Shown here in pieces: positions 3,916-56,771 of a stretch of 64,000 nucleotides of DNA. A program made the translations under genes and the position numbers. The notes below the pieces were generated by a model that was given only the letters and a program-made list of their open reading frames with translations, had not been told where the DNA came from and did not search any database. Every line of letters starts with the position of its first letter. Position 1 is the stretch's first letter. Source of the stretch: an uncultured Collinsella sp. (GTDB lineage: Bacteria; Actinomycetota; Coriobacteriia; Coriobacteriales; Coriobacteriaceae); assembly GCA_905194675.1 (NCBI GenBank), contig CAJJTG010000001.1:75632-139631 (forward strand). The letters are read 5' to 3'.

Positions 3916-6900
3916 ATGAACAGGATCACTGCTGCCCTCTATAGGTTTTTGGTTGTCTATCTTTCGGTTGCGATGGTCGTGACCTCGATACCGCTTGCGC
4001 CCCGCGCGGCTTATGCCGATGACGCCGGGGCGCTTGCCGTTGAGAGCGAGGCCCAAGAGACCGACTCGGGCTCCGATACCGATGCGGTCGATGAATCATC
4101 ATCTTCGGACGAAAGCGCTTCATCCGCGTCTTCCGACCAAGAGAATAATACGCAGGACGACTCATCCAGCGCGGCATCCGATGCCCCCGGGACGAGCCTA
4201 GCGCAGGACCTCACAAGTGCTGTGACTGATTCCGATGCTGCAAAGAGCTCGCCTGCAACGTCAGAGTCCTCGTCCGATGACAGCGAAGTCGATCCCCTCG
4301 TGTATGAGGATCCAACGGTCTATGAGTATGCCAAGCTTATGCCGAACGGCTATGTGTATCCGTGCGATGCAGGCGGAAGCGTTACGGTAGAGATTGATGG
4401 AAACGACCCGTATGGGAGCTCTGTCGACGGTAAATTGGTAACCAATCTGATCGTTGATTACGGAGTGGATGGGGTCCCCGGATATATTTGTGAGTATTCC
4501 TCCAATCTGCGTTCGGTGCGTTTTGAGAACAGCTCTATTTCTTCAATTGGACTACACGCCTTTTCTGGGTGCTCCAATCTCGCCGATATCAGCTTTTCCG
4601 GTATGACCATTGGAAGTATCGGAACAGGGGCCTTTTCTGGGTGCGGATCGCTTACGAGCCTGAACATTAATGACGTTGCTACCATCGGCTCTATGGGCGA
4701 TGCCGCGTTTGCCTGGAGCGGGCTGCGGTCTACGGGTCTCGACAAGGTCGTTGGTCTCAGTTCGATTCCTGAGAACGCTTATAATGCCTGCAGCGCTCTG
4801 ACCGATACCGGTCTGGGCGGGAACACATCCATCACGTCAATCGGCGTTAATGCGTTCAAAAACTGCTCCCGCCTTGCGACGACCGGACTTGAGAGCAATA
4901 CGACGATCAAGACGCTCCGCGAAGGTTGCTTCTCCGGGACCAATATGAGCGGCGGGCTGACGCTGCCCCTTTATTCCAAAATCGAGGAACTGCCGAGCCG
5001 TGCGTTCTATGGCTCTAAGCTCGAAACCGTGTACCTTGGGTGCGACCATGTGGTGCTCATTAATTCCACCACGTTTCCCAAGCAATACATGACTGTCATG
5101 GTCCCTGCCAAGATGGTTTCGCAATACGAAAGCGGCCACCCTAAAGAGGTTTGGGAGAGCTGTAATGGTAGCCTGCCCGTCCCCGTAGGCAAGATGCTCC
5201 AAAAGATTGAGATCTCGCGTGATCCCGACAAGATGGCCTATCAGCCGGGGGAAAAGATCTCGCTCGAGGGCATGAGTGTCACATTTCAATATCCTCATTC
5301 GACGATGGATAGCGACTACGAAGCGCTCATAAAGGAAGAACTCGGCGAATACCTTACGGCGACCCCCTGCGATGGTGATGTCTTCGACGAGTCGATGGAC
5401 GGAGAACCTATACAGCTCGTGTACGACGATGGCTACACGCGCCTTGTCGCGTACAGCAAGGGCAACCTGCAGCAGGCGGCCTACGAGTATGCCAAGCTCA
5501 TGCCCAACTACTATCTGTATCCGTGCGACGCAAACGGAAATCTTACAGTAGAAATCGATGAGAACAGCCCGCGCGAGAACTCCGTCGACGGTCGAATGGT
5601 AACGAATTTGATTGTCGATTACGGGGTGGATGAAGTCGACGCACAGCTCTGTGCCGACTCTACCAACCTGCGTTCAGTGCGCTTTGAGAACACTTCCATT
5701 TCCAAATTCGGATTGCACGCCTTCTATAACTGCCCGAATCTCACCGATATCAGCCTTTCCGGTATGACCATCGGCACCATCGGGAAAGAGGCATTCTATG
5801 GCTGCAAGTCGCTTGCGAGCCTGAACATCAGCGAGACTACTACCATTGGCTCGATGGGCGACGCCGCGTTTGCCGAGAGTGGACTGGTGTCCACGGGGCT
5901 CGACAAGGTTATCGGCCTCACATCGATTCCCGACAGAGCCTACGAAGGCTGCAAGGCTCTGACCGATACCGGCCTGGACAAGAATGCCTCCATTACATCG
6001 ATTGGCGTTTGCGCGTTCAGGTTTTGCTCGAACCTTGCTACCACAGGGCTCGAGAGCAACACAACGGTCGAAACGCTTGGCCACACCTGCTTCTACGGCA
6101 CCGACTTGAGCGGCGGACTGACGCTGCCATATAACTCCAAGATCGAGGAGTTGCCGGAAAAGGCGTTTGGCAGTACCAATCTCGAGACCGTGTTCTTTGG
6201 GTGCAACCATGCGGTGCTCATTAACACCGACACGTTCCCCAAATACAACATGACCGTCATGGTCCCTGCCAGGATGATTCCGAAGTATGCTAACGGGCAT
6301 CCCAAAGCTGTTTGGGAGAGGTGCAACGGCTGCCTGCCCGTCCCGGTGGGCAAGGTGCTCGAGAACGTTGGGATCTCACGCGACCCCAACAACATGACCT
6401 ACGAGACGGGGGAGACCATTTCGCTCGAGGGCATGAGCGTTGAGCTCGATTACCCGCATACGGTATCGATTTGGAACTACGAGGCGCTCATACAGGAAGA
6501 GCTCGGCGAGTACCTTACGGCCACCCCCTGCGACGGTGACGTCTTCGATGAGTCGATGGACGGACAGCCCGTAAAGCTCGTGTATGACGACGGCTATTCG
6601 CATTTTGAAACCCAGACCAAGGGCACGCTACGGCTCAAGAAGCCTGAGCCGACGTCGTTCCAGATCTCCTATGCTCAAACGATCGATAAAGGCGAACGCA
6701 AACTGATGGACGGCGTTGAGCTGCCCGATGTTTCCGGCGCGACGACGATCGATGCGGGCGCCGAGGTCACGCTCGATGCCGGTGCTTTGGGGATGCTCAA
6801 CGACAACATCACGTTTAAGGGCTGGTATGACACCGAGTCCGGCAAGTATATCTCCAAAGAGACGGCCTACACGTTTACGCCGGATAAGGATCTGTCCCTG

Positions 6901-9900
6901 GAGGCTCGCTTTAAGCTCAAGGACTATGCGGTGCATGTCAACGATGCGCAGGCGACCGATTCGTCGCAGGACTATGCGCACCTGAGTGTTACCGCCCAAA
7001 ACTGCTATCGCAATGCCGGCGAGACGGTTGAGGTTTCTGCCGTCACGGATAACGCCCTGTTCCTGGGCTGGTATCTGGGCGAGGGCGATGATGCGTACGC
7101 CGCGAGCGATCAGCTCGACTTTACCTATACGGTGGACAAGGCGGACGCGATTGTGTCCGAGGACAAGACTGACGCTAGGATCGAGATCACTCCGCGATAC
7201 TGCGCTCCGCAGGCGAGCGTTGTGCTGAGTGTGGATGGGGTCGATGAGAACGGGCAGCCGCTCGGGCAGTTCCTTTCCACCGGTCTGTACGGCATCGGGT
7301 CGCGCGTAACGGTCGTGGCGGTGCCAATGCCTGGCTATGTGTTTGACTACGCGACCGATGCCCTCGGCAACGTTGTCTTTACCGGCGACGATGGTCCGTC
7401 CTACACGTTTGTGCTCGAGGGAGATGTGCAGTACACCGCGCATTTCCGCGAGGCGACTGACCCCGACGAGTCACTCGCGGCGCTTAAAGCCGCGCTCATT
7501 GCCGCGATTACGGCTGCGGCCGTTCTCGCCACCATGTATGGCCTGGGCGAGATTGTCGACCCCATCGCGGCCGACGCGGTGATTGAGATCGGTATGGCCG
7601 ACAACATTGAGGATGTTGCCGCTGTGGGCACCAAGGTGCTCAAGGAGATTAAGGACATCATCGACGACCACAAGAAGCCCAAGCCTCATGGCGACCATAA
7701 GATTGAGATTATTGCCACCGCGCAGCCCGAGGTGGGCGGCGTCGTTACCGGAGGCGGTATCCACTATGAGGGGACGGTCGCCACGCTCGAAGCCGTCGCA
7801 AATCCCGGCTATCGCTTCGTATGTTGGAAAGAGAACGGCGTCGAGGTCTCGACATCTCCTCTCAAGACGATGACGATCACGGACCTGACGCCCGAGGTTG
7901 TAAAGATGACGGCCGTCTTTGAGAAAAAAGTCGAGGTCACGGCAGTTGCCGAAGCCGATGGCATTCAGGCCGATTTTTCGACGGGCTGCACCGCAAGCCC
8001 TGTAAAGCAGAGCATCACCCGTGGCGATCAGGCTATGGTCATTGCGAGCGAGGGTCCCGACTATGCCTTTGTGGGATGGTTTGAGGACGGCATCGAGGTT
8101 TCGCCCGAGCGCACGTATATCTTCGAGGCCGAGGTCGACCGCCATCTGGTTGCGCGCTTCCGCAAGGCGGACAAGACTATTCTGGTGAATACCGATCCCT
8201 TCGATAGCGCCGAGGTGCTGTGCGATGGCATGCCAGTCGTGGATGGCAAGGTTCGCGCGAAGGATGGCGATATTCTCACGTTTACGATGCGGCCCAAGGT
8301 GCGCCCCGACAATCCGGAGAAAACGTACCGTTTTGTAGAGTGGCGAGAAACCGATGCGCAGGGTATCACGATTGCCAACAAGCAGGAAGTTTGCGAATAC
8401 CGCGTTAACGGCAATGCCCGAATTGAGGCCGTAATGGACGGCAGAGATACGCATACCGTGCGTGCCGAGGCCGACCCGCTCGAGGGCGGCACCGTTACGC
8501 TGAAGCGCGGCGAGACTGCCGGCATGGTTCTCGAGGTCCCCGAGGGTGAGCGCGTGACCGCGGAGGCTACGCCATCCGAGGGCTATATCTTTGACGGTTG
8601 GTATCTGAGCAATGGTGGCTCGGATACTACGTCGACGCTGGTTTCGAGCGAGCGTTCGTATACCTTTGAGCCCATTACCGACTGCGTGGTCCAGGCGAAG
8701 TTTACGCGTGCCTGCAAGGTGGACGTTGTCGTTGAGCCGGCCGCGGCCATGGCGGGCAAATATATGGTGCACGGTGAGGGCTACTGCATGAAGGGCGAGC
8801 CTGCCACGCTGAGCATTGAGCTCACGGCGGAGGCGAGCAAACAATTTACCTTTAAGGGCTGGTACGACGCCAAGACGGACCTGCTTTTGGGTACCGACCC
8901 CAGCTATCTCGAGTTCTATCCCGAGGACGTGGAATGCACCGTGCGCGCGGTGTTTGAGGAAAATACCTATACCGTGACGGCGAAGGCCAAGAAGACCTTT
9001 GTGGAGCGCGGTACGGTTGAGATTGAGGGGCACCCGGGGGTATCTTCGGTTACCTGCGGATATGGCGACACGGTGATGCTCAAGGCGAAGGCCAATGACG
9101 GCTACCGCTTTGACCATTGGAAGGATGACTCCGGTAAGGAGTACGACTCTGCCGAGCTGGTCGTTAAGGTTACCAAGTGCGACACCTATACCGCGATCTT
9201 TACCGACTCAAAACCCGAGGTAATGGTCACGGCCGATTCGTGGCTCGGCGGTACTGTGACGTGTAATGGGACCGTGGTGAACCCTACGACCGATACGTTC
9301 AAATTAGGGGAGACCCTTCATCTGACGGCTAAGGCCCATCCTGGTTTTTTGTTCTGGGGTTGGTACGTCAATGGTCGCCTGAAGAGCCTTAAGCACGAGA
9401 CCTCGTTGGTTGCGAAGGCTCGCGGTAAAACCGGACACTGCGTTATTACCGCGGCCTTTGTGCCGATCGATACCGTCTGCGTGCCTCTCGCCGATCCTGC
9501 GGAGGGCGGCACCGTCAAGGCGAGCCGAATCCTTGCCGACCGCGGCGCGGAGGTTGCCCTTAAGGCGACGCCCAATCCCGGTTACGTCTTTACTGGTTGG
9601 TATACGGCCGACGGCACGTTTGAGTCTGCCGATGCGGAGTTCACCTGCCACCAGGAGCGCAGCCATGTGCACGTCGCTCGCTTTATGGCAAAAAGCTATG
9701 AAGTCGACGCCACGACGGTAGTCGATTCCGGCACCGGTTCGCTGGTCGAATCGAGCGTCGCCGGCTGGGTCGAGGGCGCAGGCACCGTCGAGGCGGGGCA
9801 TGCCGCCACGCTGACGGCGCATGCGCTTTCGGGCTATGCGTTTGAGTATTGGGCCGATGCCTCGGGCGCCGTGGTAAGCCGTGACAGCACCTATCACGTG

Positions 9901-12900
9901 GTGCCGACGTCTGACACGACGCTTCAGGCCGTGTTCTCGGCAAAACAATATACGGTGGACGTCTCGTGCGAGGAGAGCATGGGCACGGTCGAGGGCGCGG
10001 GGGCGTATGCCGCTGGACAGGTCGCAACCGTGCGTGCGGTCGCCGCCGAGGATACGGCTTTTGTGGGCTGGTTCCGTAACGGCACATGCGTGAGCTCCAA
10101 GAAAACCTATCGATTTACCGTGCGTGAGGATACGTCGCTCTATGCCGTCTTTGCGTCGGGTTCGTATGTCGTGCATACCGTTGCTTCGCCTGCCGAGGGC
10201 GGAGCCGTGAGCGGCTTTGGTGGCTATGAGGCTGGCGACCGCGCAACGCTTCGTGCGATCGCCAACACCGGGTATTCGTTTGCGGGTTGGACGGACGACA
10301 AGGGCGAGACAGTCAGCGAGAACGCCGACTATACTGTTAAGGTCGCGGGTGACGCCACCTATACGGCGACCTTTACGCCTAAGTCCTATCAGGTCGTTTT
10401 GAGCGCGAGTGACGATAGCGTTAGCACTCTGAGCGGCGAGGGCTCCTATCAATTCGGTGATACGGTCGAACTCAACGTTACGCCTACGGGAACCAAACGT
10501 TTTGTCGGCTGGTATGTCCTGGATGCCGAGGGCAACAAGTCGCTGCTGAGCTGCGACGCCCATTGTTGGGTTAAGCTCGACAAGGATATGGTCGAGGGGC
10601 TCGAGGACGATACGTTGGAGCTCCAGGCCGTGTTTGCCGATCCGTACGAGGTGACCGTTACGGGCGAGGTCGTGGTGAAGGACAAGACTTCGAACAGGGG
10701 CTGCCGTGTTACGGGCAGCGGTAGCTTTGCCGTGGGCGACCAGGTGGAACTGTCCGCTGTTGCCGGTATGGGCTATCGCTTTGTGGGCTGGAGCACCGAT
10801 AAGGAGGGCACCTCGATTGTCGAGACCGCGACGACCCTCGATGTGACCGCCACGCAGGACATAACGTACTACGCGCAGTTCGAATCCGATGGACAGGTGA
10901 CCATTACCGTCACCGGCTCGTCCATCTTCCGCGGTACGGCCCTTCTGGTCGACGGCATTCCTGCCGGTAGCAGGTCATACGACAGGGGTGACATGTTTAT
11001 GGCCATCGCGATCCCGTGGAAGAAGTACCACTTCTCGCATTGGGTCGACGATGCGGGTGTTACGGTGGGCTACAGCGCTTTCTATATCGGTACCGCCAAG
11101 GAGAATAAGCAGCTTACGGCTGTGTTCTACGAGACGGGCTGCGATGTTCAGGTCGCTACGTATCCCAAGGATGCGGGCTTTAGCATGGTTGCGCTTGGTA
11201 CCGGTGGCTCCTACCACTCCGCCGCGATTATGTTTACCGTGCCGCACAAGGGTTGGAAGTTTAAATACTGGGCCGACGAGAACGGCATGCCTGTGGGCGC
11301 CACACCGGTGATCAACCGCGTAGTGTTTGGCAACCGTACTTTTACGGCCGTTTATGAGCGGGCGTCGATGACGGTTACGGCGGTGGATTCGCGTCAGGGC
11401 GGACACGTCGAGGGCTCCTCCGAGGACGAATCTCTGGGCTATGCCGTGACCAACGAAGTCGAGAACGGTACGTCCACGACCCTGACTGCCGTTCCCGATG
11501 CGGGCTATGTGTTCGATGGGTGGTATGCGCGCAATGACGACGGGTCGTTGGGCGATGAGCCGCTGAGCACGGATGCTACCTGGACGTTTGTCCCCGAGGA
11601 CAACATGACCGTCGAGGCGCGCTTTGCGGAGGCGCCTAAGTACAAGGTGACGGCCCGAGCGGTCAACGGATCGGTTGATCCGGAGTCTGCTTTGGTCGCT
11701 ACGGATGGCAAGGTGACGCTTTCGGCGGCGCCCGATGAGGGCTGCTACCTGACGCGCGTGACCGTTGCCGAAGAGGCCGGTGATGACGGTTCGGCCGGTA
11801 ATGCCTATGACCTCGATATTTCTGACTATAAGGGTGGGGCGTACGAGGTCACACTGAGTGGCGTGAGTGCTCCGCAGCAGGTCACGTTTGAATTCGCAAA
11901 GGCTGCGGCTCCGGAGGTGCTCGCTCAGCCGCAGGATACGAGTGCTTATGAGGGCGATCCGGTTGAACTTTCGGTTGCCGCCGAGGCGGGGCGCAACGTT
12001 CGCGTCCATGCGGCCGTGTCTTCTGGATCCGCTGCAGACGTCAAGCTGAGCTACCAGTGGTATCGCGTGTCTGACGATAGCGGCAAGGCGGTGGCGCTGA
12101 AGAGCGAGACGGGGGAGACGCTTTCGATCGCCCAGCTCGACAGCGACGGCGAGGGCGAGTACTTCTGCCGCATTACGCAGAACTACCTGGGCACGGTGAC
12201 AAAGACGGATACCGAACATGCGAAGGTATCCATCGTGCCGCGAGAAGCACTTGTGTTTAACGGGCGCGTGCTGCCGGTGGCGACCGCTCACGATGAGTAC
12301 CGTGCAGAGATTGCTGGTGCTACGGGCGGCAAGGCACCGTATGCGTACAACTTGGATGATGTTGAGGTTCCTGAGGGCATGCAGCTGACGCTGGCAGATG
12401 ACGGATCGGGCGCCTTGGTGCTCTCGGGCGTGCCTGCGGCTACGGGTGTGCATAGCTTCAAGATTAGGTGCACTGATGACCTGGGCAACAAGTGCGATGC
12501 GCACTTCGCGCTGCTCGTGAAGGCGAAGGAAGTCCCGCTTGCATTTGAGGGCCAGACCTTTACCTACAACGCGACGGCGCAGGCCCCGGAGCTTTCGGGC
12601 GTGCCCGAGGGTTGCGAGGACGATGTCAAACTGACCTATGTTGGCACGGGCGACACACATTACTCGTCGGATCAGGCGCCGGTGGATGCCGGCACGTATC
12701 GTGCGGTGGTGACGCTCGACGCCAAGGGATATGTCGGTAATGCCTCCTGTGACTTCACGATCGAGAAGGCCCCGGTCGATATTTCGATCGAGACGTCTGA
12801 TGTGACATACGATGGCGCACGACACGGTGCGGCGGTTGCGGTTGCCGGCCTTGATGCGTCTGGCTATTCCGTTGCCTATTGCGGTATAGATGGAACGTCC

Positions 12901-15900
12901 TATGGTCCGACGGCGCTGGAGCCGTGCGACAGTGGCAACTACCGCGTCACGGCTAAGGTGACTGACTCCAACTATCAGGGTAAAGAGTCCGCCGAGTTCT
13001 CGATTGCAAAGGCAAGCCAGGTCATTACGGGAACGACGAGCTATTCGGGCGTGTACGGTGGAGACCCCATTGTGTTTAACAACGTTGCCCAGACTCCCGT
13101 GACTTTTGAGCTGGTCGATTCCGATGACGATACGGGCCCGGTTTCGATTAAGGGACGCTGCGCGACGGTGAAGGCTGCCGGTACGGCACGTGTTGTCGCC
13201 CATGCCAAGGCGTCTCGAAACTATCTTGCCGCCGAGGACGTCGAGTTGACGGTTTCCGTTGCACCTGCCCAGTTGCTGGTGAAGGTCGACGATGCCGAGC
13301 GCTTTGAGGGCCAGGAAAATCCCGAGTTTACCTCCAGCTTGGTGAGCCGTTGCGACACCTCGGACGTTAAGGTTACGTACTTCTGCTCGGCGAATAAGAA
13401 ATCGCCGGCGGGTGAGTACCAGATCGACGCGGCGGTTGCGGATCCGAACTTTGATGTCGCGGTCGACCCCGGTACGCTGACGGTCAAGAAGAAGCCCGAG
13501 CACTACAAGGTGACGGCGAAGGCAGTCAACGGTTCGGTCGACAATGCTTTGGTTTCGGTTGTTGAGGGCGGGGACGCGACCCTCTCGGCGACGCCCGACG
13601 AGGGCTGCTACCTCGAGCGCGTGACGGTCGTGCAGGCCGGCTCGGATGCGACCGTTGACCTCGACATTTCTGATTACAAGGGCGGGGCGTACGAGGTCAC
13701 GCTGAACGATGTCACCGCATCGCAGGAGGTCACGTTCGAGTTTGCGAAGGCGGACGCTCCGCGTGTGGTCGCGCAGGCGCAGGACGTGAGCGTCCACGAG
13801 GGCGATACCGTCGCGCTCTCGGTCGCTGCCGAGGCAGGCAAGAACGTCGCCGACCACGCGGCCTCGTCCACGGGTTGCGCTGCCGAGGTTGAGCTTTCCT
13901 ACCAGTGGTTCCGCATGGCGAATGGCAAGGCCGTGGCGCTCGATGGCGAGACGGGGGAGACGCTCTCGCTCGCGGACCTCGATGACGAGAAAGCCGGCGA
14001 GTACTTCTGCCGCATCACTCAACGCTACCTTGGTACTGAGAAGCAAGCGGACAGTGATTGTGCCGCCGTTTCCGTCGTGCCGTGGGACACCCTTGTGTTT
14101 AACGGCGACCTGCTGCCGGCAGCGAGCGCGCACGGCACGTACCTCGCAACGATTGCCGGGGCCGCGGGCGGCAAGGCTCCGTACGAGTACGCATGGGATG
14201 AGACGAAGCTCCCCGACGGGTTCAAGCTTTCCCGTACACCGGGCGGTCTGACGCTCTCGGGCATCCCGTCCAAGACGGGCGTTTCCGCCTTTGATATCAC
14301 TTGCAGGGATGCTCGTGGCGAGGCCATGACCGCCCGCTTTGCGCTCGTTGTCCAGGCAAAGCACGTAAAGCTATCGTTCACGGATAGCGACTTTACCTTT
14401 AATGGCGCGTCGCAGGCGCCCGAAGTTTCCGGTGCTCCTAAGGTCTGCAAGGGCGACCTTAAGGTCTGGTACTTTGGTACTGGAAGCACGCAATATTCCT
14501 CGACGGAGGCCCCGACTGATGCCGGCACGTACCGCGCTGTCGCCACGCTGCGCGGCCACGGCTACATCGGTGCCGCCGCCTGCCAGTTTGAGATCGCTCT
14601 GGCAAAGCTCAAGGTGAAGGTTGACGACGCCGAGCGGTTCGAGGGCGAGGCGAACCCAGCGTTTACCTCGAGCCTGGAGAGTGCGGTTGACACTTCGGGT
14701 GTGAAGGTCGAGTATTCCTGCGATGCCGATGAGAGCTCTCCTGCTGGCGAGTACCAGATCGGCGCGACGGTCACCGACCCGAACTTCGATGTCGAGGTCG
14801 TGCCCGGAACGCTGACGGTGAAAAAGAAGCAGGAGCCCGTCGATCCAGACCCGGTGGTTCCGGACCCGGACAATCCTGATCCGGACAACCCGGATCCCGA
14901 TCAGCCTGATCCTGGTCCCAACCCCGACCCGGATCCTAACCCTGAACCTGATAATCCTGATCCGGGCCCCAAGCCGGATCCCGATAATCCCGACCCTGAT
15001 AACCCCGAGCCCGATAACCCGGACAAGCCCGAGCGCATTGAGGTGACGGCAAAGGCGGTCAACGGTTCGGTCGACAACGCTTCCGTCACCGTTGATGCGG
15101 GCGGCGACGTGACGCTCTCGGCGACGCCCGACAAGGGCTGCTACCTCGAGCTGGTGACGGTCACGGAAGCCGGCTCGGACAAGGCCATCGATCTCGATAT
15201 CTCCGACTATGAGGGCGGGGCGTACGAGGTCACGTTGAGTAGCGTCACCGCGTCGCAGGAGGTCACGTTCGAGTTCGTGAAGGCGGACGCTCCGAAGGTG
15301 ATCGCCCAGCCGCAGGATGCGAGCGCCCACGAGAGCGATGCTGTCGTGCTCTCGGTTGCTGCCGAGGCGGGCAAGGGCGTCCTCGACCACGCGTCCTCGT
15401 CCACGGGTTCCGCCGCTGATGTCGAACTGTCCTATCAATGGTTCCACATGGTGGGCGGCGAGGCCGTGGCGCTCGAGGGCGAGACGGGGGAGACGCTCCT
15501 CATCGAGGGCCTCGATGACGATTGCGCCGGCGAGTATTTCTGCCGCGTCACCCAGCGCTACCTTGGTACCGAGACGCAGGTGGAAAGCGATCGTGCCGTC
15601 GTTTCCGTTGTGCCCCGGGATGCCCTTGTGTTCAACGGCGGTCTGCTGCCGGTCGCACGTGCGCGTAGCACGTATCGCGCGACGATTTCGGGCGCCGCGG
15701 GTGGCGAAGCTCCGTATGAGTACACGTGGGACGACGCTAAGCTCCCCGACGGGTTTAAGCTTACCCGCACAGCGGGCGGTTTGACGCTCTCGGGCACCCC
15801 GTCCAAGGTCGGAGTGTCTACCTTTGACATCACGTGCAAGGATGCTCAGGGCAAGACCGTGACCGCGCACTTTGTTCTTGTCGTTCAGGCGAAGCGGGTC

Positions 15901-16824
15901 GAGCTTGCATTTGAGGGCGGCAACTTCGTCTATAGCGGTGACGCCCAGGCGCCCGAGGTCACGGGGGTTCCCAAGGCCTGCGAAGGTGACCTGAGGGTCA
16001 GGTATTACGGGACGGGCGGCACGCACTATTCGTCGAGTGGGGCCCCGACCGATGCCGGCACATATCGCGCCGTTGCCACGCTGCGAAGCGACGGGTATAT
16101 CGGCGCCGCCTCGCGCAAGTTCAAGATTTCACCGGCGAAGCTTAGGGTAAAGGTCGACGATGCTGAACGCTTCGAGGGAGAGGCGAATCCCGCCTTTACC
16201 TCGAGCCTAAAGAGCTCGGCCGATACCTCGGGCGTGAAAGTCGAGTACTCCTGCGTCGCCGATGAGAGTTCCCCGGCGGGCGAGTACCAGATCGGGGCGA
16301 CGGTCGCCGACCCGAACTTCGATGTCACGGTTGAGCCCGGTACGCTGACGGTGAAGAAGAAGCAGGAGCCTGTCAACCCGGACCCGGTGGTTCCCGATCC
16401 GGACAAGCCCGATGGACCCGATCCGGACAAGCCGGACCCGGACAAGCCCGAGCCTGACCAGCCTGATCCGGGCAAGCCTGAGCCCGACAAACCGGAGCCT
16501 GATCAGCCGGACAAGCCGGACCCGGATAACCCGGATAAGCCGGAGCCCGGCAACCCGGACCCGGATAAACCCGGGACGCCCGATTCCGACCAGCCGGATT
16601 CAAAGGATCCGACAAAACCCGGTAGTTCGGATGACTCCGCAGCTGATAAGGCAAAGGCATCGGGCGCGGAAAACTCCGGCAAGAAGGAATCTTCCAAGTC
16701 GAGCGCTCAGCAGCTCGCCGACACGGGCGATCGTGCGCCATTGGCCGTCGCCGTCGCTGTAGGCGCCGTTGCGCTTGTCGCGCTGGGACTCGAACTGCTG
16801 CGTCGCCGTCGCTCGGACGCGTAA
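3916..16824 (+). CDS. Giant (4302 aa) cell-wall-anchored surface protein / adhesin. Composition: signal peptide, Ser/Asp-rich acidic region, 2 BspA-type LRR modules, many Listeria-Bacteroides (Flg_new) repeats, 3 Ig/MBG-like megarepeats, Pro-Asp linkers, LADTG sorting signal
   Basis: Single uninterrupted ORF. N-terminal signal peptide (MNRITAALYRFLVVYLSVAMVVTSIPLAPRAAYA). Repeated GY(R/V)F(V/D)GW motifs. YQW...GEYFCR Ig-like motifs. C-terminus has LADTG (nt 16714-16728) followed by a hydrophobic segment and RRRRSDA tail, i.e. an LAXTG (class E sortase) type signal. Confidence 0.85.
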   Translation: MNRITAALYRFLVVYLSVAMVVTSIPLAPRAAYADDAGALAVESEAQETDSGSDTDAVDESSSSDESASSASSDQENNTQDDSSSAASDAPGTSLAQDLTSAVTDSDAAKSSPATSESSSDDSEVDPLVYEDPTVYEYAKLMPNGYVYPCDAGGSVTVEIDGNDPYGSSVDGKLVTNLIVDYGVDGVPGYICEYSSNLRSVRFENSSISSIGLHAFSGCSNLADISFSGMTIGSIGTGAFSGCGSLTSLNINDVATIGSMGDAAFAWSGLRSTGLDKVVGLSSIPENAYNACSALTDTGLGGNTSITSIGVNAFKNCSRLATTGLESNTTIKTLREGCFSGTNMSGGLTLPLYSKIEELPSRAFYGSKLETVYLGCDHVVLINSTTFPKQYMTVMVPAKMVSQYESGHPKEVWESCNGSLPVPVGKMLQKIEISRDPDKMAYQPGEKISLEGMSVTFQYPHSTMDSDYEALIKEELGEYLTATPCDGDVFDESMDGEPIQLVYDDGYTRLVAYSKGNLQQAAYEYAKLMPNYYLYPCDANGNLTVEIDENSPRENSVDGRMVTNLIVDYGVDEVDAQLCADSTNLRSVRFENTSISKFGLHAFYNCPNLTDISLSGMTIGTIGKEAFYGCKSLASLNISETTTIGSMGDAAFAESGLVSTGLDKVIGLTSIPDRAYEGCKALTDTGLDKNASITSIGVCAFRFCSNLATTGLESNTTVETLGHTCFYGTDLSGGLTLPYNSKIEELPEKAFGSTNLETVFFGCNHAVLINTDTFPKYNMTVMVPARMIPKYANGHPKAVWERCNGCLPVPVGKVLENVGISRDPNNMTYETGETISLEGMSVELDYPHTVSIWNYEALIQEELGEYLTATPCDGDVFDESMDGQPVKLVYDDGYSHFETQTKGTLRLKKPEPTSFQISYAQTIDKGERKLMDGVELPDVSGATTIDAGAEVTLDAGALGMLNDNITFKGWYDTESGKYISKETAYTFTPDKDLSLEARFKLKDYAVHVNDAQATDSSQDYAHLSVTAQNCYRNAGETVEVSAVTDNALFLGWYLGEGDDAYAASDQLDFTYTVDKADAIVSEDKTDARIEITPRYCAPQASVVLSVDGVDENGQPLGQFLSTGLYGIGSRVTVVAVPMPGYVFDYATDALGNVVFTGDDGPSYTFVLEGDVQYTAHFREATDPDESLAALKAALIAAITAAAVLATMYGLGEIVDPIAADAVIEIGMADNIEDVAAVGTKVLKEIKDIIDDHKKPKPHGDHKIEIIATAQPEVGGVVTGGGIHYEGTVATLEAVANPGYRFVCWKENGVEVSTSPLKTMTITDLTPEVVKMTAVFEKKVEVTAVAEADGIQADFSTGCTASPVKQSITRGDQAMVIASEGPDYAFVGWFEDGIEVSPERTYIFEAEVDRHLVARFRKADKTILVNTDPFDSAEVLCDGMPVVDGKVRAKDGDILTFTMRPKVRPDNPEKTYRFVEWRETDAQGITIANKQEVCEYRVNGNARIEAVMDGRDTHTVRAEADPLEGGTVTLKRGETAGMVLEVPEGERVTAEATPSEGYIFDGWYLSNGGSDTTSTLVSSERSYTFEPITDCVVQAKFTRACKVDVVVEPAAAMAGKYMVHGEGYCMKGEPATLSIELTAEASKQFTFKGWYDAKTDLLLGTDPSYLEFYPEDVECTVRAVFEENTYTVTAKAKKTFVERGTVEIEGHPGVSSVTCGYGDTVMLKAKANDGYRFDHWKDDSGKEYDSAELVVKVTKCDTYTAIFTDSKPEVMVTADSWLGGTVTCNGTVVNPTTDTFKLGETLHLTAKAHPGFLFWGWYVNGRLKSLKHETSLVAKARGKTGHCVITAAFVPIDTVCVPLADPAEGGTVKASRILADRGAEVALKATPNPGYVFTGWYTADGTFESADAEFTCHQERSHVHVARFMAKSYEVDATTVVDSGTGSLVESSVAGWVEGAGTVEAGHAATLTAHALSGYAFEYWADASGAVVSRDSTYHVVPTSDTTLQAVFSAKQYTVDVSCEESMGTVEGAGAYAAGQVATVRAVAAEDTAFVGWFRNGTCVSSKKTYRFTVREDTSLYAVFASGSYVVHTVASPAEGGAVSGFGGYEAGDRATLRAIANTGYSFAGWTDDKGETVSENADYTVKVAGDATYTATFTPKSYQVVLSASDDSVSTLSGEGSYQFGDTVELNVTPTGTKRFVGWYVLDAEGNKSLLSCDAHCWVKLDKDMVEGLEDDTLELQAVFADPYEVTVTGEVVVKDKTSNRGCRVTGSGSFAVGDQVELSAVAGMGYRFVGWSTDKEGTSIVETATTLDVTATQDITYYAQFESDGQVTITVTGSSIFRGTALLVDGIPAGSRSYDRGDMFMAIAIPWKKYHFSHWVDDAGVTVGYSAFYIGTAKENKQLTAVFYETGCDVQVATYPKDAGFSMVALGTGGSYHSAAIMFTVPHKGWKFKYWADENGMPVGATPVINRVVFGNRTFTAVYERASMTVTAVDSRQGGHVEGSSEDESLGYAVTNEVENGTSTTLTAVPDAGYVFDGWYARNDDGSLGDEPLSTDATWTFVPEDNMTVEARFAEAPKYKVTARAVNGSVDPESALVATDGKVTLSAAPDEGCYLTRVTVAEEAGDDGSAGNAYDLDISDYKGGAYEVTLSGVSAPQQVTFEFAKAAAPEVLAQPQDTSAYEGDPVELSVAAEAGRNVRVHAAVSSGSAADVKLSYQWYRVSDDSGKAVALKSETGETLSIAQLDSDGEGEYFCRITQNYLGTVTKTDTEHAKVSIVPREALVFNGRVLPVATAHDEYRAEIAGATGGKAPYAYNLDDVEVPEGMQLTLADDGSGALVLSGVPAATGVHSFKIRCTDDLGNKCDAHFALLVKAKEVPLAFEGQTFTYNATAQAPELSGVPEGCEDDVKLTYVGTGDTHYSSDQAPVDAGTYRAVVTLDAKGYVGNASCDFTIEKAPVDISIETSDVTYDGARHGAAVAVAGLDASGYSVAYCGIDGTSYGPTALEPCDSGNYRVTAKVTDSNYQGKESAEFSIAKASQVITGTTSYSGVYGGDPIVFNNVAQTPVTFELVDSDDDTGPVSIKGRCATVKAAGTARVVAHAKASRNYLAAEDVELTVSVAPAQLLVKVDDAERFEGQENPEFTSSLVSRCDTSDVKVTYFCSANKKSPAGEYQIDAAVADPNFDVAVDPGTLTVKKKPEHYKVTAKAVNGSVDNALVSVVEGGDATLSATPDEGCYLERVTVVQAGSDATVDLDISDYKGGAYEVTLNDVTASQEVTFEFAKADAPRVVAQAQDVSVHEGDTVALSVAAEAGKNVADHAASSTGCAAEVELSYQWFRMANGKAVALDGETGETLSLADLDDEKAGEYFCRITQRYLGTEKQADSDCAAVSVVPWDTLVFNGDLLPAASAHGTYLATIAGAAGGKAPYEYAWDETKLPDGFKLSRTPGGLTLSGIPSKTGVSAFDITCRDARGEAMTARFALVVQAKHVKLSFTDSDFTFNGASQAPEVSGAPKVCKGDLKVWYFGTGSTQYSSTEAPTDAGTYRAVATLRGHGYIGAAACQFEIALAKLKVKVDDAERFEGEANPAFTSSLESAVDTSGVKVEYSCDADESSPAGEYQIGATVTDPNFDVEVVPGTLTVKKKQEPVDPDPVVPDPDNPDPDNPDPDQPDPGPNPDPDPNPEPDNPDPGPKPDPDNPDPDNPEPDNPDKPERIEVTAKAVNGSVDNASVTVDAGGDVTLSATPDKGCYLELVTVTEAGSDKAIDLDISDYEGGAYEVTLSSVTASQEVTFEFVKADAPKVIAQPQDASAHESDAVVLSVAAEAGKGVLDHASSSTGSAADVELSYQWFHMVGGEAVALEGETGETLLIEGLDDDCAGEYFCRVTQRYLGTETQVESDRAVVSVVPRDALVFNGGLLPVARARSTYRATISGAAGGEAPYEYTWDDAKLPDGFKLTRTAGGLTLSGTPSKVGVSTFDITCKDAQGKTVTAHFVLVVQAKRVELAFEGGNFVYSGDAQAPEVTGVPKACEGDLRVRYYGTGGTHYSSSGAPTDAGTYRAVATLRSDGYIGAASRKFKISPAKLRVKVDDAERFEGEANPAFTSSLKSSADTSGVKVEYSCVADESSPAGEYQIGATVADPNFDVTVEPGTLTVKKKQEPVNPDPVVPDPDKPDGPDPDKPDPDKPEPDQPDPGKPEPDKPEPDQPDKPDPDNPDKPEPGNPDPDKPGTPDSDQPDSKDPTKPGSSDDSAADKAKASGAENSGKKESSKSSAQQLADTGDRAPLAVAVAVGAVALVALGLELLRRRRSDA
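4321..6600 (+). repeat. Two tandem ~1.15-kb in-gene repeats encoding LRR (BspA-like) modules
   Basis: YEYAKLMPNGYVYPCDAGG... (from 4321) and YEYAKLMPNYYLYPCDANG... (from 5491) align nearly residue-for-residue over ~380 aa. Confidence 0.7.
11638..16360 (+). repeat. Three tandem in-gene megarepeats (~1.86, ~1.54, ~1.32 kb). Repeats 2 and 3 are each followed by a Pro-Asp-rich (PDPDNPDP...) linker (nt 14836-15030 and 16363-16600)
   Basis: Units begin KYKVTARAVNGSVD (11638), HYKVTAKAVNGSVD (13501) and RIEVTAKAVNGSVD (15040). High nucleotide identity, e.g. the DLDISDYKGGAYEVTL segments. Confidence 0.75.
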
Positions 16825-16942: not shown

Positions 16943-18301
16943 ATGGCTTCATTCGCTCCGCGCGGTCTGCGCTCCGACCATGTCGTCACCGTCGGCATCG
17001 CTCTGTTCTCGATGCTCTTTGGCGCCGGCAACCTCATTATTCCGCCGCTGCTGGCGCTGCAGGCAGGTTCCGCCACGCCGGTCGCCATGTTCGGCTTTCT
17101 GATTGCCGCCATCGGCCTGCCCGTCATGGGCTTTATCGCCGTGGCGCTTGCCGGAACGGCGCGCGAGCTTGCTGGCCGCGTGCACCCCAAGTTTGGCGAG
17201 TTCTTTGTCGCGGCGGTGTATCTGGCCATTGGCCCGTGCCTGGCCATTCCGCGTACGAGTTCCACGGCCTTCGAGATGCTGGTGCCGCTGTTGCCCGAGG
17301 GCGTCTCGCTCGGCACGGCGCGCCTGGTGTTTGCCGTCGGCTTCTTCGTCGTCGCGTTTGCGCTCACGCTGCGCCCGGGCGTCATCACACGCGTGCTCGG
17401 CCGCATTACGGGCCCCGCGCTCATTGCCCTTATCGTGTTGGTCGTGGGTGCCGCCGTGGTCTCGCCGCTGGGTCCCGCTGCCGCGCCGCAGGCTCCCTAT
17501 AATGCCGGTGCTGCCGTGCAGGGCTTTTTGACCGGCTATCAGACCATGGACCTGCTCGCGTCGCTCGCCTTTGGCATCATCATCGCCGAGACTATCCACG
17601 AGCTGGGCGTTACCGATGACAAGCGCGTTGCCTTCGAGATTTCGCGCTCCGGCGTGATCGCCGGTGTGCTCATGGCCATCATCTACTGCGGCCTGGCGCT
17701 TGCCGGCGCGCAGCTCAGCACCGTGATGCCCGATGCCACCAACGGTGCCGCCATCCTTGCCCGTTCGGCCTCCATGCACTTTGGTCTTGCCGGCACGGTC
17801 GTGGTCTTTGCGATCTTTTTCCTCGCCTGCATGAACGTGTGCATCGGCCTTATCAGCTGCTGCTCGCGTTACTTCTGCGAGACGTATGTGGTTAAAGGGG
17901 GAGCGGAGGCTTCCGAGGAGGCCATGCGCCGTCCCTTTGCGGTTCTCGCCTTTGTGTTCGCGACGTTTTCGTGCGTGCTCTCCAACGTGGGTCTCGACGT
18001 GATCCTCATGTTCTCGGTGCCCATGCTCAACGCCCTGTACCCCGTCGCCATCGTGCTGGTGCTTATGGGTCTGGTGCACGGTTTTTGCGACGCGCATCCG
18101 CAGGTGTGGGTCTGGGTCGGCGGCGTTGTCGCAGTGCAGAGCGTGATTACCTCGGTCCGCGATGCGTTCTTTACGGGCGCGTGGCTGCCGTTCGATGCGC
18201 TGCCGCTGGCAGACATTGGAGCCGCGTGGGCGCCGGTTGCCGTGGTGGCGTTTGTGATCGGCCTGCTCCACAGTCGGTTTGTCGTACATTCGAGGAGCTA
18301 G
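16943..18301 (+). CDS. brnQ: Branched-chain amino acid transport system II carrier (LIVCS family)
   Basis: FGAGNLIIPPLL signature. ~12 predicted TM segments. RBS gaaaggtgg upstream. Confidence 0.8.
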   Translation: MASFAPRGLRSDHVVTVGIALFSMLFGAGNLIIPPLLALQAGSATPVAMFGFLIAAIGLPVMGFIAVALAGTARELAGRVHPKFGEFFVAAVYLAIGPCLAIPRTSSTAFEMLVPLLPEGVSLGTARLVFAVGFFVVAFALTLRPGVITRVLGRITGPALIALIVLVVGAAVVSPLGPAAAPQAPYNAGAAVQGFLTGYQTMDLLASLAFGIIIAETIHELGVTDDKRVAFEISRSGVIAGVLMAIIYCGLALAGAQLSTVMPDATNGAAILARSASMHFGLAGTVVVFAIFFLACMNVCIGLISCCSRYFCETYVVKGGAEASEEAMRRPFAVLAFVFATFSCVLSNVGLDVILMFSVPMLNALYPVAIVLVLMGLVHGFCDAHPQVWVWVGGVVAVQSVITSVRDAFFTGAWLPFDALPLADIGAAWAPVAVVAFVIGLLHSRFVVHSRS

Positions 18302-18392
18302 GGTATCGTCGCTTGCACAGGCGGGGAGTCTCCCCTATAATTTCCTTCGCTTTGGGACACGCAAGGTTTAGACCTTAGCTGCTCAACACCTT

Positions 18393-18469
18393 CGGGACGT
18401 GGCGCAGTTTGGTAGCGCGCCTGCTTTGGGAGCAGGATGTCGCAGGTTCAAATCCTGTCGTCCCGACCA
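18393..18469 (+). tRNA. tRNA-Pro (anticodon TGG)
   Basis: CGGGACGTGGCGCAG...CGTCCCGACCA. Anticodon loop ctTTGGGag. T-arm GGTTCAAATCC. CCA encoded. Confidence 0.85.
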
Positions 18470-18475
18470 TATCTT

Positions 18476-18549
18476 GCGGGCGTAGTTCAATGGTAGAACC
18501 CCAGCCTTCCAAGCTGATGACGCGGGTTCGATTCCCGTCGCCCGCTCCA
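18476..18549 (+). tRNA. tRNA-Gly (anticodon TCC)
   Basis: GCGGGCGTAGTTCAATGGTAGAAC...CAGCCTTCCAAGCTG... closely resembles E. coli glyT. Acceptor GCGGGCG/CGCCCGC + T + CCA. Confidence 0.85.
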
Positions 18550-18608
18550 TAGGATAGTTTTAACGGCTTTGGCTCCATTTGGTGCCAGAGCCGTTTTCAT
18601 AAGCGTGT

Positions 18609-18631
18609 CGGGCGACGGGAATCGAACCCGC
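18609..18631 (-). other. Inverted partial copy (23 nt) of the tRNA-Gly T-arm/acceptor 3' region
   Basis: cgggcgacgggaatcgaacccgc is the exact reverse complement of tRNA-Gly positions 18522-18544, ~60 nt downstream of the tRNA. Confidence 0.6.
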
Positions 18632-18644
18632 TCCGCGCCCACCT

Positions 18645-18669
18645 AAGTTGCGGTGAAATACGGACTGTC
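18645..18669. repeat. Half-copy of the small hairpin repeat family (AAGTTGCGGTGAAATACGGACTGT)
   Basis: Matches the left arms of the copies at 56772, 58311 and 19008. Confidence 0.6.
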
Positions 18670-18798
18670 TTTTGGCTTTTGCGAGCCCATTAAAGGCCGG
18701 GGTAGCTAATTTGGAGCGGGCTTTTTGACTGCTCTAGCGATCGGCTGGCAAATGTGGCCAAAAAAGCCCTGTCACAAAATGACCGGTCTGGTGCTGAG

Positions 18799-18956
18799 CC
18801 ACGAAAGCGGCCCATCTACTACGTTTGGCCCGCAGGGGTCGACCATAGCAGCAGTTTCGGAAAATCGGCAAGCCGTCTACCAGCTGTTTTGATATTTGGG
18901 ATTTCTGTATGGTCGAGGGTAATCGGTTAAACGTAGTAGATAGGCCCATTTTGTGG
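18799..18956. repeat. Large palindromic intergenic element, copy 1 (~158 bp; 28-nt terminal inverted arms CCACGAAAGCGGCCCATCTACTACGTTT / AAACGTAGTAGATAGGCCCATTTTGTGG plus inner GGTCGACCAT/ATGGTCGA palindromes)
   Basis: Same arm sequences and inner palindromes as the element at 56902-57059. Confidence 0.65.
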
Positions 18957-19007
18957 CGAACAGTAGGATTCGCGGTCCAAGGCTGCCAGTTTCGGATGGC
19001 CAACCTG

Positions 19008-19076
19008 GAAGTTGCGGTGAATTAATTTCTGAAAAGCGCGAATAAGCCTAATCTAGGAACTATTTCACCGCAACTT
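19008..19076. repeat. Small hairpin repeat, variant copy (arms GAAGTTGCGGTGAA / TTCACCGCAACTT)
   Basis: 13-nt inverted arms identical to the outer arms of the hairpins at 56772 and 58311. The internal sequence differs. Confidence 0.55.
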
Positions 19077-19090
19077 AGGAGGGGATGGGG

Positions 19091-19546
19091 CTAGCTGCGG
19101 GGGCGGTGGCGGAGCTTGTCGATGGTGGAGTCGATGCTGCGGCTGCGAGCTTCGGCTGCGGTTTGGCGCTTGCGGCGGTAATCGATCATGCCTTGGATGA
19201 TGGGCTTGCCAAAGCTCACGACATCATCGTTGTAGATGGCGGTTCGGGCTGCGAGGAGGCAGTCGGTAAAGTCCATATGGGTCTTGCCAAAGAGTTTGAT
19301 GGCAAGGGCGACAACGGTGGGCTCGTCGACCATGACGTCATCGAGCAGCCTTTTCATGGCCGCAGCAATCTCAACGCGGGGAACCTTATAGACGTCGCGC
19401 AGCGTGACCACGACGCGCGTGATGATTTCGGGGTAGACACGAGCGGTGCGGGTGGCGATGACCTTGGCGGCGCGCGGTGACAGAACTTCGTCGTCGTCAA
19501 GCAGGTAGCGTAGGATGACGGTCTCGTCGATGATGGTGCTACTCAT
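19091..19546 (-). CDS. PIN-domain toxin (VapC-like) of a type II toxin-antitoxin pair
   Basis: 151 aa. N-terminal IIDETVIL. C-terminal FTDCLLAARTAIYNDDVVSFGKP matches the PIN D..(L)IAA.A....lvT.D pattern. Overlaps the upstream antitoxin gene by 8 nt. Confidence 0.55.
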   Translation of the reverse strand: MSSTIIDETVILRYLLDDDEVLSPRAAKVIATRTARVYPEIITRVVVTLRDVYKVPRVEIAAAMKRLLDDVMVDEPTVVALAIKLFGKTHMDFTDCLLAARTAIYNDDVVSFGKPIIQGMIDYRRKRQTAAEARSRSIDSTIDKLRHRPRS

Positions 19547-19862
19547 GGATATCTACTTCCTCGGGACCCAAAATCGAATCGTCGCTTTCTGTAGCAAGGT
19601 ATTCAATCCAGACATTGCGCTCCTTGGAGCGGCGATTGGGGTCCCCATTTGCTTTGAGCGATCCATAGGCGGCGGTGCCGTCCTTTGAGCGCACGGCGAC
19701 CGGCTGAAAGGGGAGCTTGCGCATCAAAATGCTCTGCGCGACAAATAGACGTACGGCCTCGGCGAGCGATGTGCCCATGGCGTCGTAGAGACGTTCGGCA
19801 TGCTGCTTGTCTTCCTCGCGAATGCGCACCTGCAGGATGGCTCGTTTTTGAGTCGATGACAT
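19539..19862 (-). CDS. RelB/DinJ-type (RHH) antitoxin
   Basis: Probable start at the internal Met (MSSTQKRAILQVRIREEDKQHAERLYDAMGTSLAEAVRLFVAQSIL...) with RBS aaggggg 4 nt upstream. Resembles DinJ family IRIDEDLK...AVRMFL. Confidence 0.5.
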   Translation of the reverse strand: MSSTQKRAILQVRIREEDKQHAERLYDAMGTSLAEAVRLFVAQSILMRKLPFQPVAVRSKDGTAAYGSLKANGDPNRRSKERNVWIEYLATESDDSILGPEEVDIHE

Positions 19863-20086
19863 CACTGGCCCCCTTAATGAGCGTGCAATATAGTCGGTCA
19901 AATGCGGCATGTGCCGATACTTGAGCATCTTATAACGATTACTTTATTTCACTCAAGTTGATAACCATTAACACGAATACAAGCGTAGTACATCCAAAAC
20001 GAGAGCGCGTAAAAATCTCTGCAGCGTACGCGTGTAATACACTCGCCTTTATATCCTATTGAGAATAATCCTAACCAGCCCAAACT

Positions 20087-41412: not shown

Positions 41413-41448
41413 ATTGGCTGCTCGGTTTGGTAAAATACCGCCGCACTT

Positions 41449-41545
41449 GGGAACGGATGGGCTCCGGTGGGCTCCGCGGTCCTCAAAACCGTTGCGAGGC
41501 GTGCAAAACGTCTTGGATGTGTTCGATTCACATACGTTCCCGCCA
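41449..41545 (+). tRNA. selC: Candidate tRNA-Sec (anticodon TCA), 97 nt
   Basis: Lies 37 nt downstream of selB. Acceptor gggaacg/cgttccc + g + CCA. 7-nt anticodon loop ccTCAaa. Long variable arm (aggcg-tgcaaaa-cgtct). T-arm atgtg-TTCGATT-cacat. By hand-folding the D-arm does not form a canonical 6-bp stem. Confidence 0.5.
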
Positions 41546-42751: not shown

Positions 42752-42865
42752 ACCACCACATTGGGGACAGGCACCTTTTGTGGTGGTTTCACTGCTTGAA
42801 TGGCCTTCTTGTGGCGTTACGAGTCAAAACCACCACAAAGGTGCCTGTCCCCAGTGTGGTGGTTT
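42752..42865. repeat. Large inverted repeat (two ~35-nt arms, each itself internally palindromic, separated by ~41 nt) in the DUF3343-gdhA intergenic region
   Basis: Left arm ccaccacattggggacaggcaccttttgtggtgg. Right arm ccaccacaaaggtgcctgtccccagtgtggtgg is its near-perfect reverse complement. Confidence 0.55.
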
Positions 42866-52148: not shown

Positions 52149-52174
52149 GTCCCGCGGCAACCACTGCGGGACCT
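52149..52174 (+). terminator. Hairpin terminator after clpX
   Basis: ggtcccgc-ggcaaccact-gcgggacc with a weak T tract. Confidence 0.5.
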
Positions 52175-52182
52175 GCCATTTA

Positions 52183-52268: not shown

Positions 52269-52337
52269 TAGGTATGCCTGTGCTATTCTGTGAGATTGTT
52301 TAGCTAGTACCTTCAGACTGAAGTAATCGATACCTAA

Positions 52338-56757: not shown

Positions 56758-56771
56758 CCCATCCCCTCAGC

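Follow-up and report, generated by a model that had tools for sequence, protein, structure and literature searches.

What are the conserved palindromic sequences that recur between the genes of Collinsella, and what might they do there? The question is raised by a 64,000-nt stretch of DNA from an uncultured Collinsella sp. (contig CAJJTG010000001.1, positions 75,632 to 139,631; referred to here as the window, with coordinates counted from its first nucleotide). An earlier note, made from the sequence alone, had described a small hairpin and a large palindrome at two loci in this window, one downstream of a tRNA-Gly gene and one around an M24 peptidase gene. Both repeats were recovered at those places, far above chance expectation, and the families to which they belong are indeed structured and intergenic, although in fact three modules rather than two are present, the third being a short hairpin with a conserved loop. 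The units are dispersed, inserted, polymorphic, hairpin-maintaining repeats located just after stop codons or between convergent genes, and the large unit holds a terminator-like core in most copies. They are probably REPIN/TRIT-like and MITE-like (miniature inverted-repeat transposable element-like) gene-end repeats that have been copied into many intergenic 3' sites, where they would have a terminator or 3'-end role.

Structure of the small palindromic unit

The 21-nt arm TTGCGGTGAAATACGGACTGT, allowing up to 3 mismatches, is matched five times in the window, at 18648 (+), at 56774 (+) and 56816 (-), and at 58314 (+) and 58356 (-), compared to 0 matches in shuffled sequences; the outer 13-mer AAGTTGCGGTGAA of the unit also matches at 19009 (+) and 19064 (-). 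Alignment of half-sites indicated that conservation spans from 11 nt outside the arm core up to the edge of the centre (CCCyTCAtaAG followed by TTGCGGTGAAATACGGACTGTTT), with an arm consensus of CCCyTCAtaAGTTGCGGTGAAATACGGACTGTTT. Because the conserved outer flank CCCyTCAtaAG is part of the unit, the small hairpin is ~85 bp in length and not ~68 bp as first described. The unit is composed of two conserved arms of 23–34 nt around a 17-nt centre, which is nearly invariant in length (the arm-to-arm gap is 21 in nearly all units) and varies in sequence from site to site. In an ungapped comparison within orthologous sites, the inner arms exhibited 75–83% identity, the centre 59% and the flanks about 50%. 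No internal inverted repeat was seen within the arm consensus by inspection. The predicted folds of the small units in the window range from −39 to −58 kcal/mol, with z-scores of −6.7 to −11.2.

A second subfamily (type 2) has the same outer arm and length as type 1 and carries the inner arm GTTCCTG/CAGGAAC in place of CGGACTG/CAGTCCG, the two types differing by a 5-nt block in both arms. Arm pairings were type 1 with type 1 in 135 units, type 2 with type 2 in 28 and mixed in a single case; as the units are almost always homotypic, the hairpin is maintained at the level of blocks. In stretches picked via the large element, which are unbiased with respect to the small unit, type 1 and type 2 occur in a ratio of 24 : 23. 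The sole chimeric unit found, L056:3917-3978, joins a type 2 arm to a type 1 arm in a mismatched hairpin, and other lineages carry a normal type 1 unit at that site. A hammerhead ribozyme was also considered, as the flank CTGATGAGG resembles its core, but this flank varies between copies (CTTATGAGG, CTGCGGAGG and others) and is not followed by stem II/GAAA, and the candidate was rejected.

Structure of the large unit and the third module

The arm of the large unit, GGCCTATCTACTACGTTT, is matched four times in the window, at 18809/18929 and 56912/57032 (0.03 in shuffled sequences), and the two units so defined fold with z-scores of −7.1 and −10.9. The unit is ~165 bp long, with identical length in 132 of 143 copies. 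Across 126 distinct aligned copies, the outer arms read GCCACGAAAnnGGCCyATCTACTACGTTT / AAACGTAGTAGATrGGCCnnTTTCGTGGC, with the invariance of the 11-nt arm core being partly an artefact of the search pattern, and the inner arms read (C)TCrACCAT / ATGGTCG. The centre, AAAACCGCAGGTAGA-nnGCyTGCGGTTTTT, is conserved and asymmetric, and the large unit therefore has an orientation. Because RNAalifold recovered the outer stem only from these 126 units, the pairing was specified manually; 80.7% of cells pair in this scheme, versus 33–41% with slid partners, and compensatory changes are found at several pairs (e.g., C-G in 55 and U-A in 37 copies at columns 21-154). The folding and covariation check proposed in the earlier note thus yielded strong folds (z-scores of −6.7 to −11.2 over both families), compensation in the large unit and block swaps in the small one, but single-base changes in the small arms were generally uncompensated. 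A 32-aa open reading frame (ORF) within the large unit at 56909 was rejected as coding, its start and frame being unconserved in other copies.

Within the large unit, the central hairpin exhibits a bias of G.U over A.C on the strand that bears the T-run. A hairpin followed by a T-run lies at this fixed central position in 69 of the 126 units on at least one strand, and on both strands in 39, compared to 32 of 630 shuffles; taken as an intrinsic terminator (a G+C-rich hairpin, then a T/U-run), the signal is present in only about half of the large copies. It is weaker in the window's own large copies, where only the minus strand at 57030-57006 was flagged.

In the third module, an 8-bp stem that varies in sequence encloses the conserved loop TTTGGGACGGGGC, and T's come next. 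The module is itself dispersed, and accompanies the small and large units at both window loci. Two inverted pairs of short hairpins elsewhere in the window, at 42752-42863 and 52171-52273, have loops (TTGGGGACAGGCACC, TTTAGGGACAGGTTT) that resemble TTTGGGACGGGGC on other stems (ACCACCACA, ACCTGCCA), pointing to a larger family in which the loop is conserved and the stem covaries. Four modules with the TTTGGGACGGGGC loop, two per strand, are packed into 180 bp adjoining a tRNA gene at L361:45795-45977 (NZ_OY725717.1 245795-245977).

Placement relative to genes

In most site clusters, with genes defined by a rough ORF caller, the arm core of the small unit lies 11–30 nt past a stop codon, and no small-unit site cluster lies between divergent genes. 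The RefSeq annotation of NZ_OY725717.1 provides a closer view. This record, 900 kb in size and bearing the label "plasmid 6" of C. aerofaciens TSDC17.2-1.1, is most likely a piece of chromosome filed as a plasmid, given the presence of rho, dnaE, argS, trpS, ruvABC and suf genes. There, the small units lie 13–29 nt after a stop codon in all four cases, at 16 and 15 nt from the stops of the convergent DegV and YafQ genes, and at 29 nt, 13 nt and 19 nt from the others; between DegV and YafQ, the entire spacer is one small unit. The corresponding distances in the window are 16 nt, from a FolC-like gene, and 17 nt, from the gene at 19091. Large units have a co-oriented gene ending upstream in 93 of 118 cases and lie between convergent genes in 68 of 118. 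Most units flank ordinary housekeeping genes, and their neighbours are functionally unrelated.

Copy number and taxonomic range

A scan with the small arm, using one genome per species, returned at least 120 stretches, nearly all labelled Collinsella. Among the stretches listed, 114 full small units and 36 single arms were found, many of the latter being full hairpins with a diverged second arm, and clustering of the flanks resolved at least 15 distinct sites with unrelated surroundings. A metagenome scan for the large unit, requiring both arm cores, added 120 further stretches, nearly all labelled human-gut contigs; metagenome and genome stretches together contained 143 large units in at least seven flank clusters. 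The copy count that the earlier note had called for thus placed many copies of both repeats beyond the window. In 200 kb of the annotated C. aerofaciens record NZ_OY725717.1, direct scanning detected four small units, two large units and a large-unit remnant near 234294, and BLAST against the full 900 kb found 24 places for the small unit and three for the large. Extrapolated to a genome, these figures would correspond to tens of small units and roughly five to a few tens of large units.

The small arm had 0 matches in viral contigs, and a search of a phage collection yielded no match; the 15-nt pattern used for the large arm proved too short in viral contigs, where it gave single chance matches only, and was discarded. 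Searches of Rfam at the gathering score detected only four tRNAs in the window and no match to the units in the window, L361 or L364, and relaxing the threshold to E up to 10 over 18300-19150 and 56700-58500 returned only tRNAs and generic hairpin noise. The RF01700 family, which we assume to be included in Rfam 15, gave no covariance-model match to the units. This family, Collinsella-1, is listed in PMC2864571. No description of the units was found in the literature searched (by sequence strings, and by Collinsella with REP, MITE or Collinsella-1). Both repeat families therefore appear to be undescribed in the sources searched, and they appear to be of kinds of bacterial intergenic repeat that are already known. 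With moderate confidence, the two families and the third short module are regarded as non-coding palindromic repeats specific to Collinsella.

The strong predicted folds, the compensatory changes and the conserved, asymmetric centre of the large unit could also be read as marks of small structured RNA genes, or of cis-regulatory RNA elements with a specific target. This is highly improbable given that no Rfam family was matched even at the relaxed threshold, that no promoter-like site adjoins the units (the single one found is upstream of tRNA genes), and that the neighbouring genes share no function; in addition, palindromic symmetry and arms without strand bias are better suited to a DNA repeat.

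Insertion polymorphism and modularity

The clearest evidence of insertion comes from the spacer at 41400-41449 (+), between the stop codon of an upstream selB-like gene (presumably selB, named by its position beside tRNA-Sec and not by Pfam) and tRNA-Sec. This spacer is empty, measuring 12 nt, in the window and in L027, contains a small unit in L003, and contains a large unit in L242 and L293. As the same site is empty, small or large depending on the lineage, the elements must have been inserted. Similarly, the small unit at 58303-58387, upstream of the M24 peptidase gene, is missing in L016, L018 and L335, where ~125 nt are replaced by AAAA in an otherwise preserved locus. Downstream of the FolC-like gene, the small unit is orthologous in 19–20 of 23 relatives and all three modules are present in 19 of 23, with two relatives (L109 and L346) lacking both the small unit and the third module. 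The mobile origin proposed for these repeats is therefore real.

The arrangement of the units was also addressed. The earlier note had the two types in the same order at both loci, first the small hairpin and then the large palindrome, but this order is not fixed. Among 120 large copies chosen regardless of the small unit, no small unit was found within 300 nt of 87, whereas 19 had one on the upstream side and 14 on the downstream side. The two large copies in the window lie in opposite orientations (18799-18956 versus 56902-57059). The repeat types form mosaics, yet are independent of each other. The proposal that the small-large-gene-small layout at the peptidase gene constitutes a composite mobile unit likewise fails, as the M24 peptidase gene is a resident of the locus and persists in the three lineages without the upstream hairpin; the layout is the result of separate insertions at two gene ends and not a composite transposon. 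At L364:27880-29244 (NZ_OY725717.1 377880-379244), downstream of mnmA, an IS3-family element, accompanied by a 3-bp GTT duplication, occupies a small unit's loop, an arrangement that resembles the targeting of REP sequences by insertion sequences in other bacteria.

Such polymorphism raises the alternative that the units are purely selfish DNA of the MITE or REPIN type, with the gene-end bias produced by selection removing other insertions and the conserved arms reflecting the needs of a transposase. This must be regarded as a serious rival, although it is rather doubtful. It would readily account for the insertion polymorphism, for the decayed and truncated copies (window 18639-18678 and 19009-19076, and the NZ_OY725717.1 remnant at about 234294), for arms that are conserved around a free centre, and for type groups that remain unmixed as in REPINs. 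Selfish DNA accounts less well for the lack of a transposase with matching ends or a RAYT/IS200-like gene in the approximately 2.04 Mb around the units, and for the lack of a target-site duplication. Most copies are also common to orthologous sites in many Collinsella lineages, implying long retention; in most copies of the large unit, the terminator-like centre keeps to a fixed position; and the distance to the stop codon is narrower than mere tolerance would require.

Proposed function at gene ends

If the units are instead gene-end repeats with a terminator or 3'-end role, they would be transcribed at the ends of mRNAs, where their hairpins would stop RNA polymerase or block 3' exonucleases. 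Termination or protection of 3' ends would explain the retention of the units at orthologous gene ends across Collinsella lineages, and a 3'-end role would also explain why the whole spacer between convergent genes is sometimes a single small unit. Because there is no T-run after its hairpin, the small unit is not a canonical intrinsic terminator; with no U-tract, it would need to terminate in a non-canonical or factor-assisted way, as proposed for mycobacterial TRIT. As no target duplication is visible, the units may have spread via a hairpin or single-strand intermediate, or through an enzyme encoded elsewhere.

Several observations weigh against this interpretation. The consensus tail that follows the small hairpin, CTTATGAGGGG, contains no T-run, the small unit was not flagged by the terminator scan, and purified mycobacterial RNA polymerase is reported to need a U-tract (PMC3993855). 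Single-base variants in the small arms (positions 8, 9, 12 and 13) are generally uncompensated, with position 13 being C/G asymmetric in 23 of 81 units, and G.U exceeds A.C only weakly (21 vs. 7) when the small unit is read in the sense orientation, an excess that is phylogenetically non-independent. Strand bias is absent from the large unit's outer arms (113 G.U vs. 93 A.C), and the long stem could therefore matter as DNA and not as RNA. With regard to copying into new sites, no clear direct repeat was seen between filled and empty alleles at the selB/tRNA-Sec or peptidase-upstream sites, a comparison of alleles from diverged lineages in which a 2-nt duplication could go unseen. Searches by tblastn of ~2.04 Mb around the units with IS200 TnpA and an E. 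coli RAYT sequence had a best E of 2.3, and a regular-expression scan for Y1/RAYT transposases returned 0 hits. No parent element was evident either, as no further match to the arm core was present in 200 kb containing IS3, IS21, IS256 and IS1249 copies. The MITE-like character suggested in the earlier note accordingly stands with respect to terminal inverted arms, small size and polymorphism, but neither a target-site duplication nor a parent insertion sequence with matching ends was found.

A further proposal is that a dedicated Collinsella protein reads the small hairpin, either as a sequence-specific termination or RNA-processing factor or as a new type of hairpin-mobilising enzyme unrelated to the RAYTs. 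The combination of a nearly invariant outer arm (TTGCGGTGrAATA), a swappable inner stem, a fixed 17-nt centre and a tight spacing to the stop codon could be the mark of such a protein. The proposal is an unlikely one; if true, the units would be part of an undescribed host-element system and not passive repeats.

The FolC-like gene and M24 peptidase locus

One set of the three modules in the window follows a Mur-ligase/FolC-like gene identified by Pfam. A full type 1 small unit at 56763-56847 (arms at 56774-56794 and 56816-36; fold of −38.9 kcal/mol, z-score −6.7) starts 6 nt past the TAA stop codon of this gene (56755-56757), its arm core TTGCGG starting 16 nt past the stop. It is followed by a third module on the plus strand at 56844-56876, consisting of the 8-bp stem GTAGTCAA/TTGACTAC, the conserved loop TTTGGGACGGGGCAA and a T-run, and then by a plus-strand large unit at 56896-57065 (core 56902-57059) with outer arms GCCACGAAATGGGCCTATCTACTACGTTT / AAACGTAGTAGATAGGCCGTTTTCGTGGT, inner arms TCGACCAT / ATGGTCGA and centre AAAACCGCAGGTAGA. 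On the other side of the M24 peptidase gene, a type 1 small unit with perfect arms at 58303-58387 (−56 to −58 kcal/mol, z-score of about −10 to −11) sits between the start of the peptidase gene and a minus-strand DUF1667 gene (stop codon at 58439-41). Another third module with the loop TTTGGGACGGGGC, on the minus strand at 58406-58438, comes directly after the DUF1667 stop codon, and is oriented, with respect to transcription, like the module at 56844.

The tRNA-Gly locus

The second locus lies downstream of the tRNA-Gly gene (18476-18549). The inverted 23-nt copy of the 3' end of this tRNA that had been noticed there is real, and occupies 18609-18631 on the minus strand. Next to it, the half-copy described at 18645 was confirmed as a truncated small unit (18639-18678) in which the right arm has been lost, leaving the left arm and part of the centre; L033 has a full small unit at the orthologous position. 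Two degenerate third modules lie between 18702 and 18790, at about 18702-18732 and 18750-18790, with GTAGCTAATTTGGAGCGGGCTTTTTGACTGC on the plus strand, GGTCATTTTGTGACAGGGCTTTTTTGGCC on the minus strand and a match at 18766-18778, and the copies in L102 and L108 have the same flank beside them. The large unit at 18793-18962 (core 18799-18956) is on the minus strand; being inverted relative to the copy at 56902, it is co-oriented with a minus-strand operon ending at 19091. This operon consists of a RelB-like antitoxin gene (19539-19928) and then a gene encoding a 151-aa protein (19091-19546). As the 151-aa gene has no Pfam match, the toxin-antitoxin pair that had been reported at this position is only half identified. 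The last unit, at 18998-19087, had been taken for a variant of the small hairpin. It does belong to the family, and is more precisely a type 2 unit (inner arm GTTCCTG/CAGGAAC) in which the left inner arm has decayed. The end of its right arm is 17 nt away from the stop codon of the 151-aa gene (19091-19546, minus strand). In relatives, L014 and L033 among them, this place is taken by a type 1 unit.

The earlier note also took this tRNA-proximal region to be an integration hot spot, and the locus is in fact variable. A low-G+C ORF of 1.2 kb lies between two full small units in L033 and others, whereas the large unit takes its place in the window, L102, L278 and L308. The 340-aa low-G+C ORF in the variable segment of L033 (L033:2816-3838) had no Pfam match. 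The inverted tRNA-Gly fragment is found at equal spacing in L100, L102, L278 and L308, and as L100 carries the ORF allele, judged by hairpin spacing, the fragment is not tied to the large unit.

Two small units bracketing alternative contents, either the 1.2-kb ORF or a large unit, raise the idea that the units are DNA sites, recognised as hairpins or inverted repeats by a recombinase or DNA-binding protein, that mark exchangeable gene cassettes, somewhat as integron attC sites do, or that serve as targets of insertion sequences. The switching of unit type between lineages at one site, the single type 1/type 2 chimera in L056, the IS3-family element with its GTT duplication in a small-unit loop, and the combination of a nearly invariant outer arm with a swappable inner arm are all in keeping with such sites. 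Alternative contents are nevertheless confined to this one locus, no integrase or recombinase is found beside the units in the window or the annotated 200 kb, and most units are flanked by ordinary housekeeping genes. The attC consensus has outer R''/R' core sites of RYYYAAC / GTTRRRY, with an IntI integrase nearby. An integron attC site was rejected as a candidate, as the outer arm AAGTTGCGG/CCGCAACTT misfits this consensus and no integrase is present among the neighbouring genes. A role as recombination sites is very unlikely overall.

Other repeats and features of the window

Two further features were observed apart from these units. Five head-to-tail copies of an 80–81 bp unit, each with a hairpin TCTCGATCTGTAACAG...CTGTTACAGATTGAGA and a variable centre, form an array at 61818-62201, between a minus-strand gene (ORF region ending near 61697) and a plus-strand gene at 62248; the array is unrelated in sequence to the small and large repeats. 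A single 4302-aa ORF at 3916-16824 has an N-terminal signal-like region, internally repeated blocks of 1.2–1.8 kb, long Pro-Asp-rich repeats and then a C-terminal hydrophobic anchor, and its product is probably a giant surface protein.

Relationship to known repeat systems

Collinsella is a common and much-studied genus of the human gut, and its intergenic repeats appear to be undescribed in the sources searched. With the units known, gene ends, operon boundaries and spurious small ORFs can be annotated better, and breaks in metagenome assemblies may be easier to explain. The units provide markers for strain typing. They also offer a second actinobacterial case, beside mycobacterial TRIT, in which to ask whether factor-assisted termination occurs at sequence-conserved hairpins that lack a U-tract.

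REPINs consist of two inverted conserved repeats with a non-conserved spacer, measure about 89 bp, and form groups between which there are no hybrids (PMC3337134). The small unit is similar to these RAYT-mobilised elements of Pseudomonas and enterobacteria in being extragenic, in its length (~85 bp vs. 89), and in its inverted repeats, free spacer and predicted long hairpin, as well as in its groups without hybrids, its lack of target duplication and its long vertical persistence. It differs in that its arm does not have an internal imperfect palindrome of its own, in that its spacer is almost fixed in length where REPINs have many spacings, and in that no RAYT/IS200-like gene was found near the units in the 2.04 Mb sampled. 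The units would also number tens per genome, compared to hundreds for REPINs.

The TRIT motif of Mycobacterium is palindromic, sequence-conserved, genus-restricted and placed tightly at stop codons, and has been proposed to be a bidirectional terminator, possibly needing a binding factor (PMC3152330). Like TRIT, which is present in dozens to about 150 copies, the small unit is actinobacterial, genus-restricted and palindromic, with conservation of both sequence and structure and a narrow placement relative to the stop codon. TRIT overlaps the coding end (around −8), whereas the small units start a few nt past the stop. This likeness is one of design and placement rather than of sequence homology.

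The large unit resembles a different class of element. The Correia elements of Neisseria are bacterial MITEs that carry regulatory signals, and the large unit shares with elements of this type its size (~165 bp), non-coding nature, long terminal inverted arms, many intergenic copies, polymorphism and transcription signal. Unlike them, it has a constant length (132 of 143 copies) and a conserved, oriented centre, with no target-site duplication found and no parent insertion sequence found in 200 kb.

In their joint occurrence, the modules are reminiscent of the BIMEs of E. coli, which are mosaics of REP with other short motifs. Although the sequences are unrelated and the Collinsella modules are much longer, both are mosaics of several independent palindromic modules in 3' intergenic regions, located between convergent genes or within operons.

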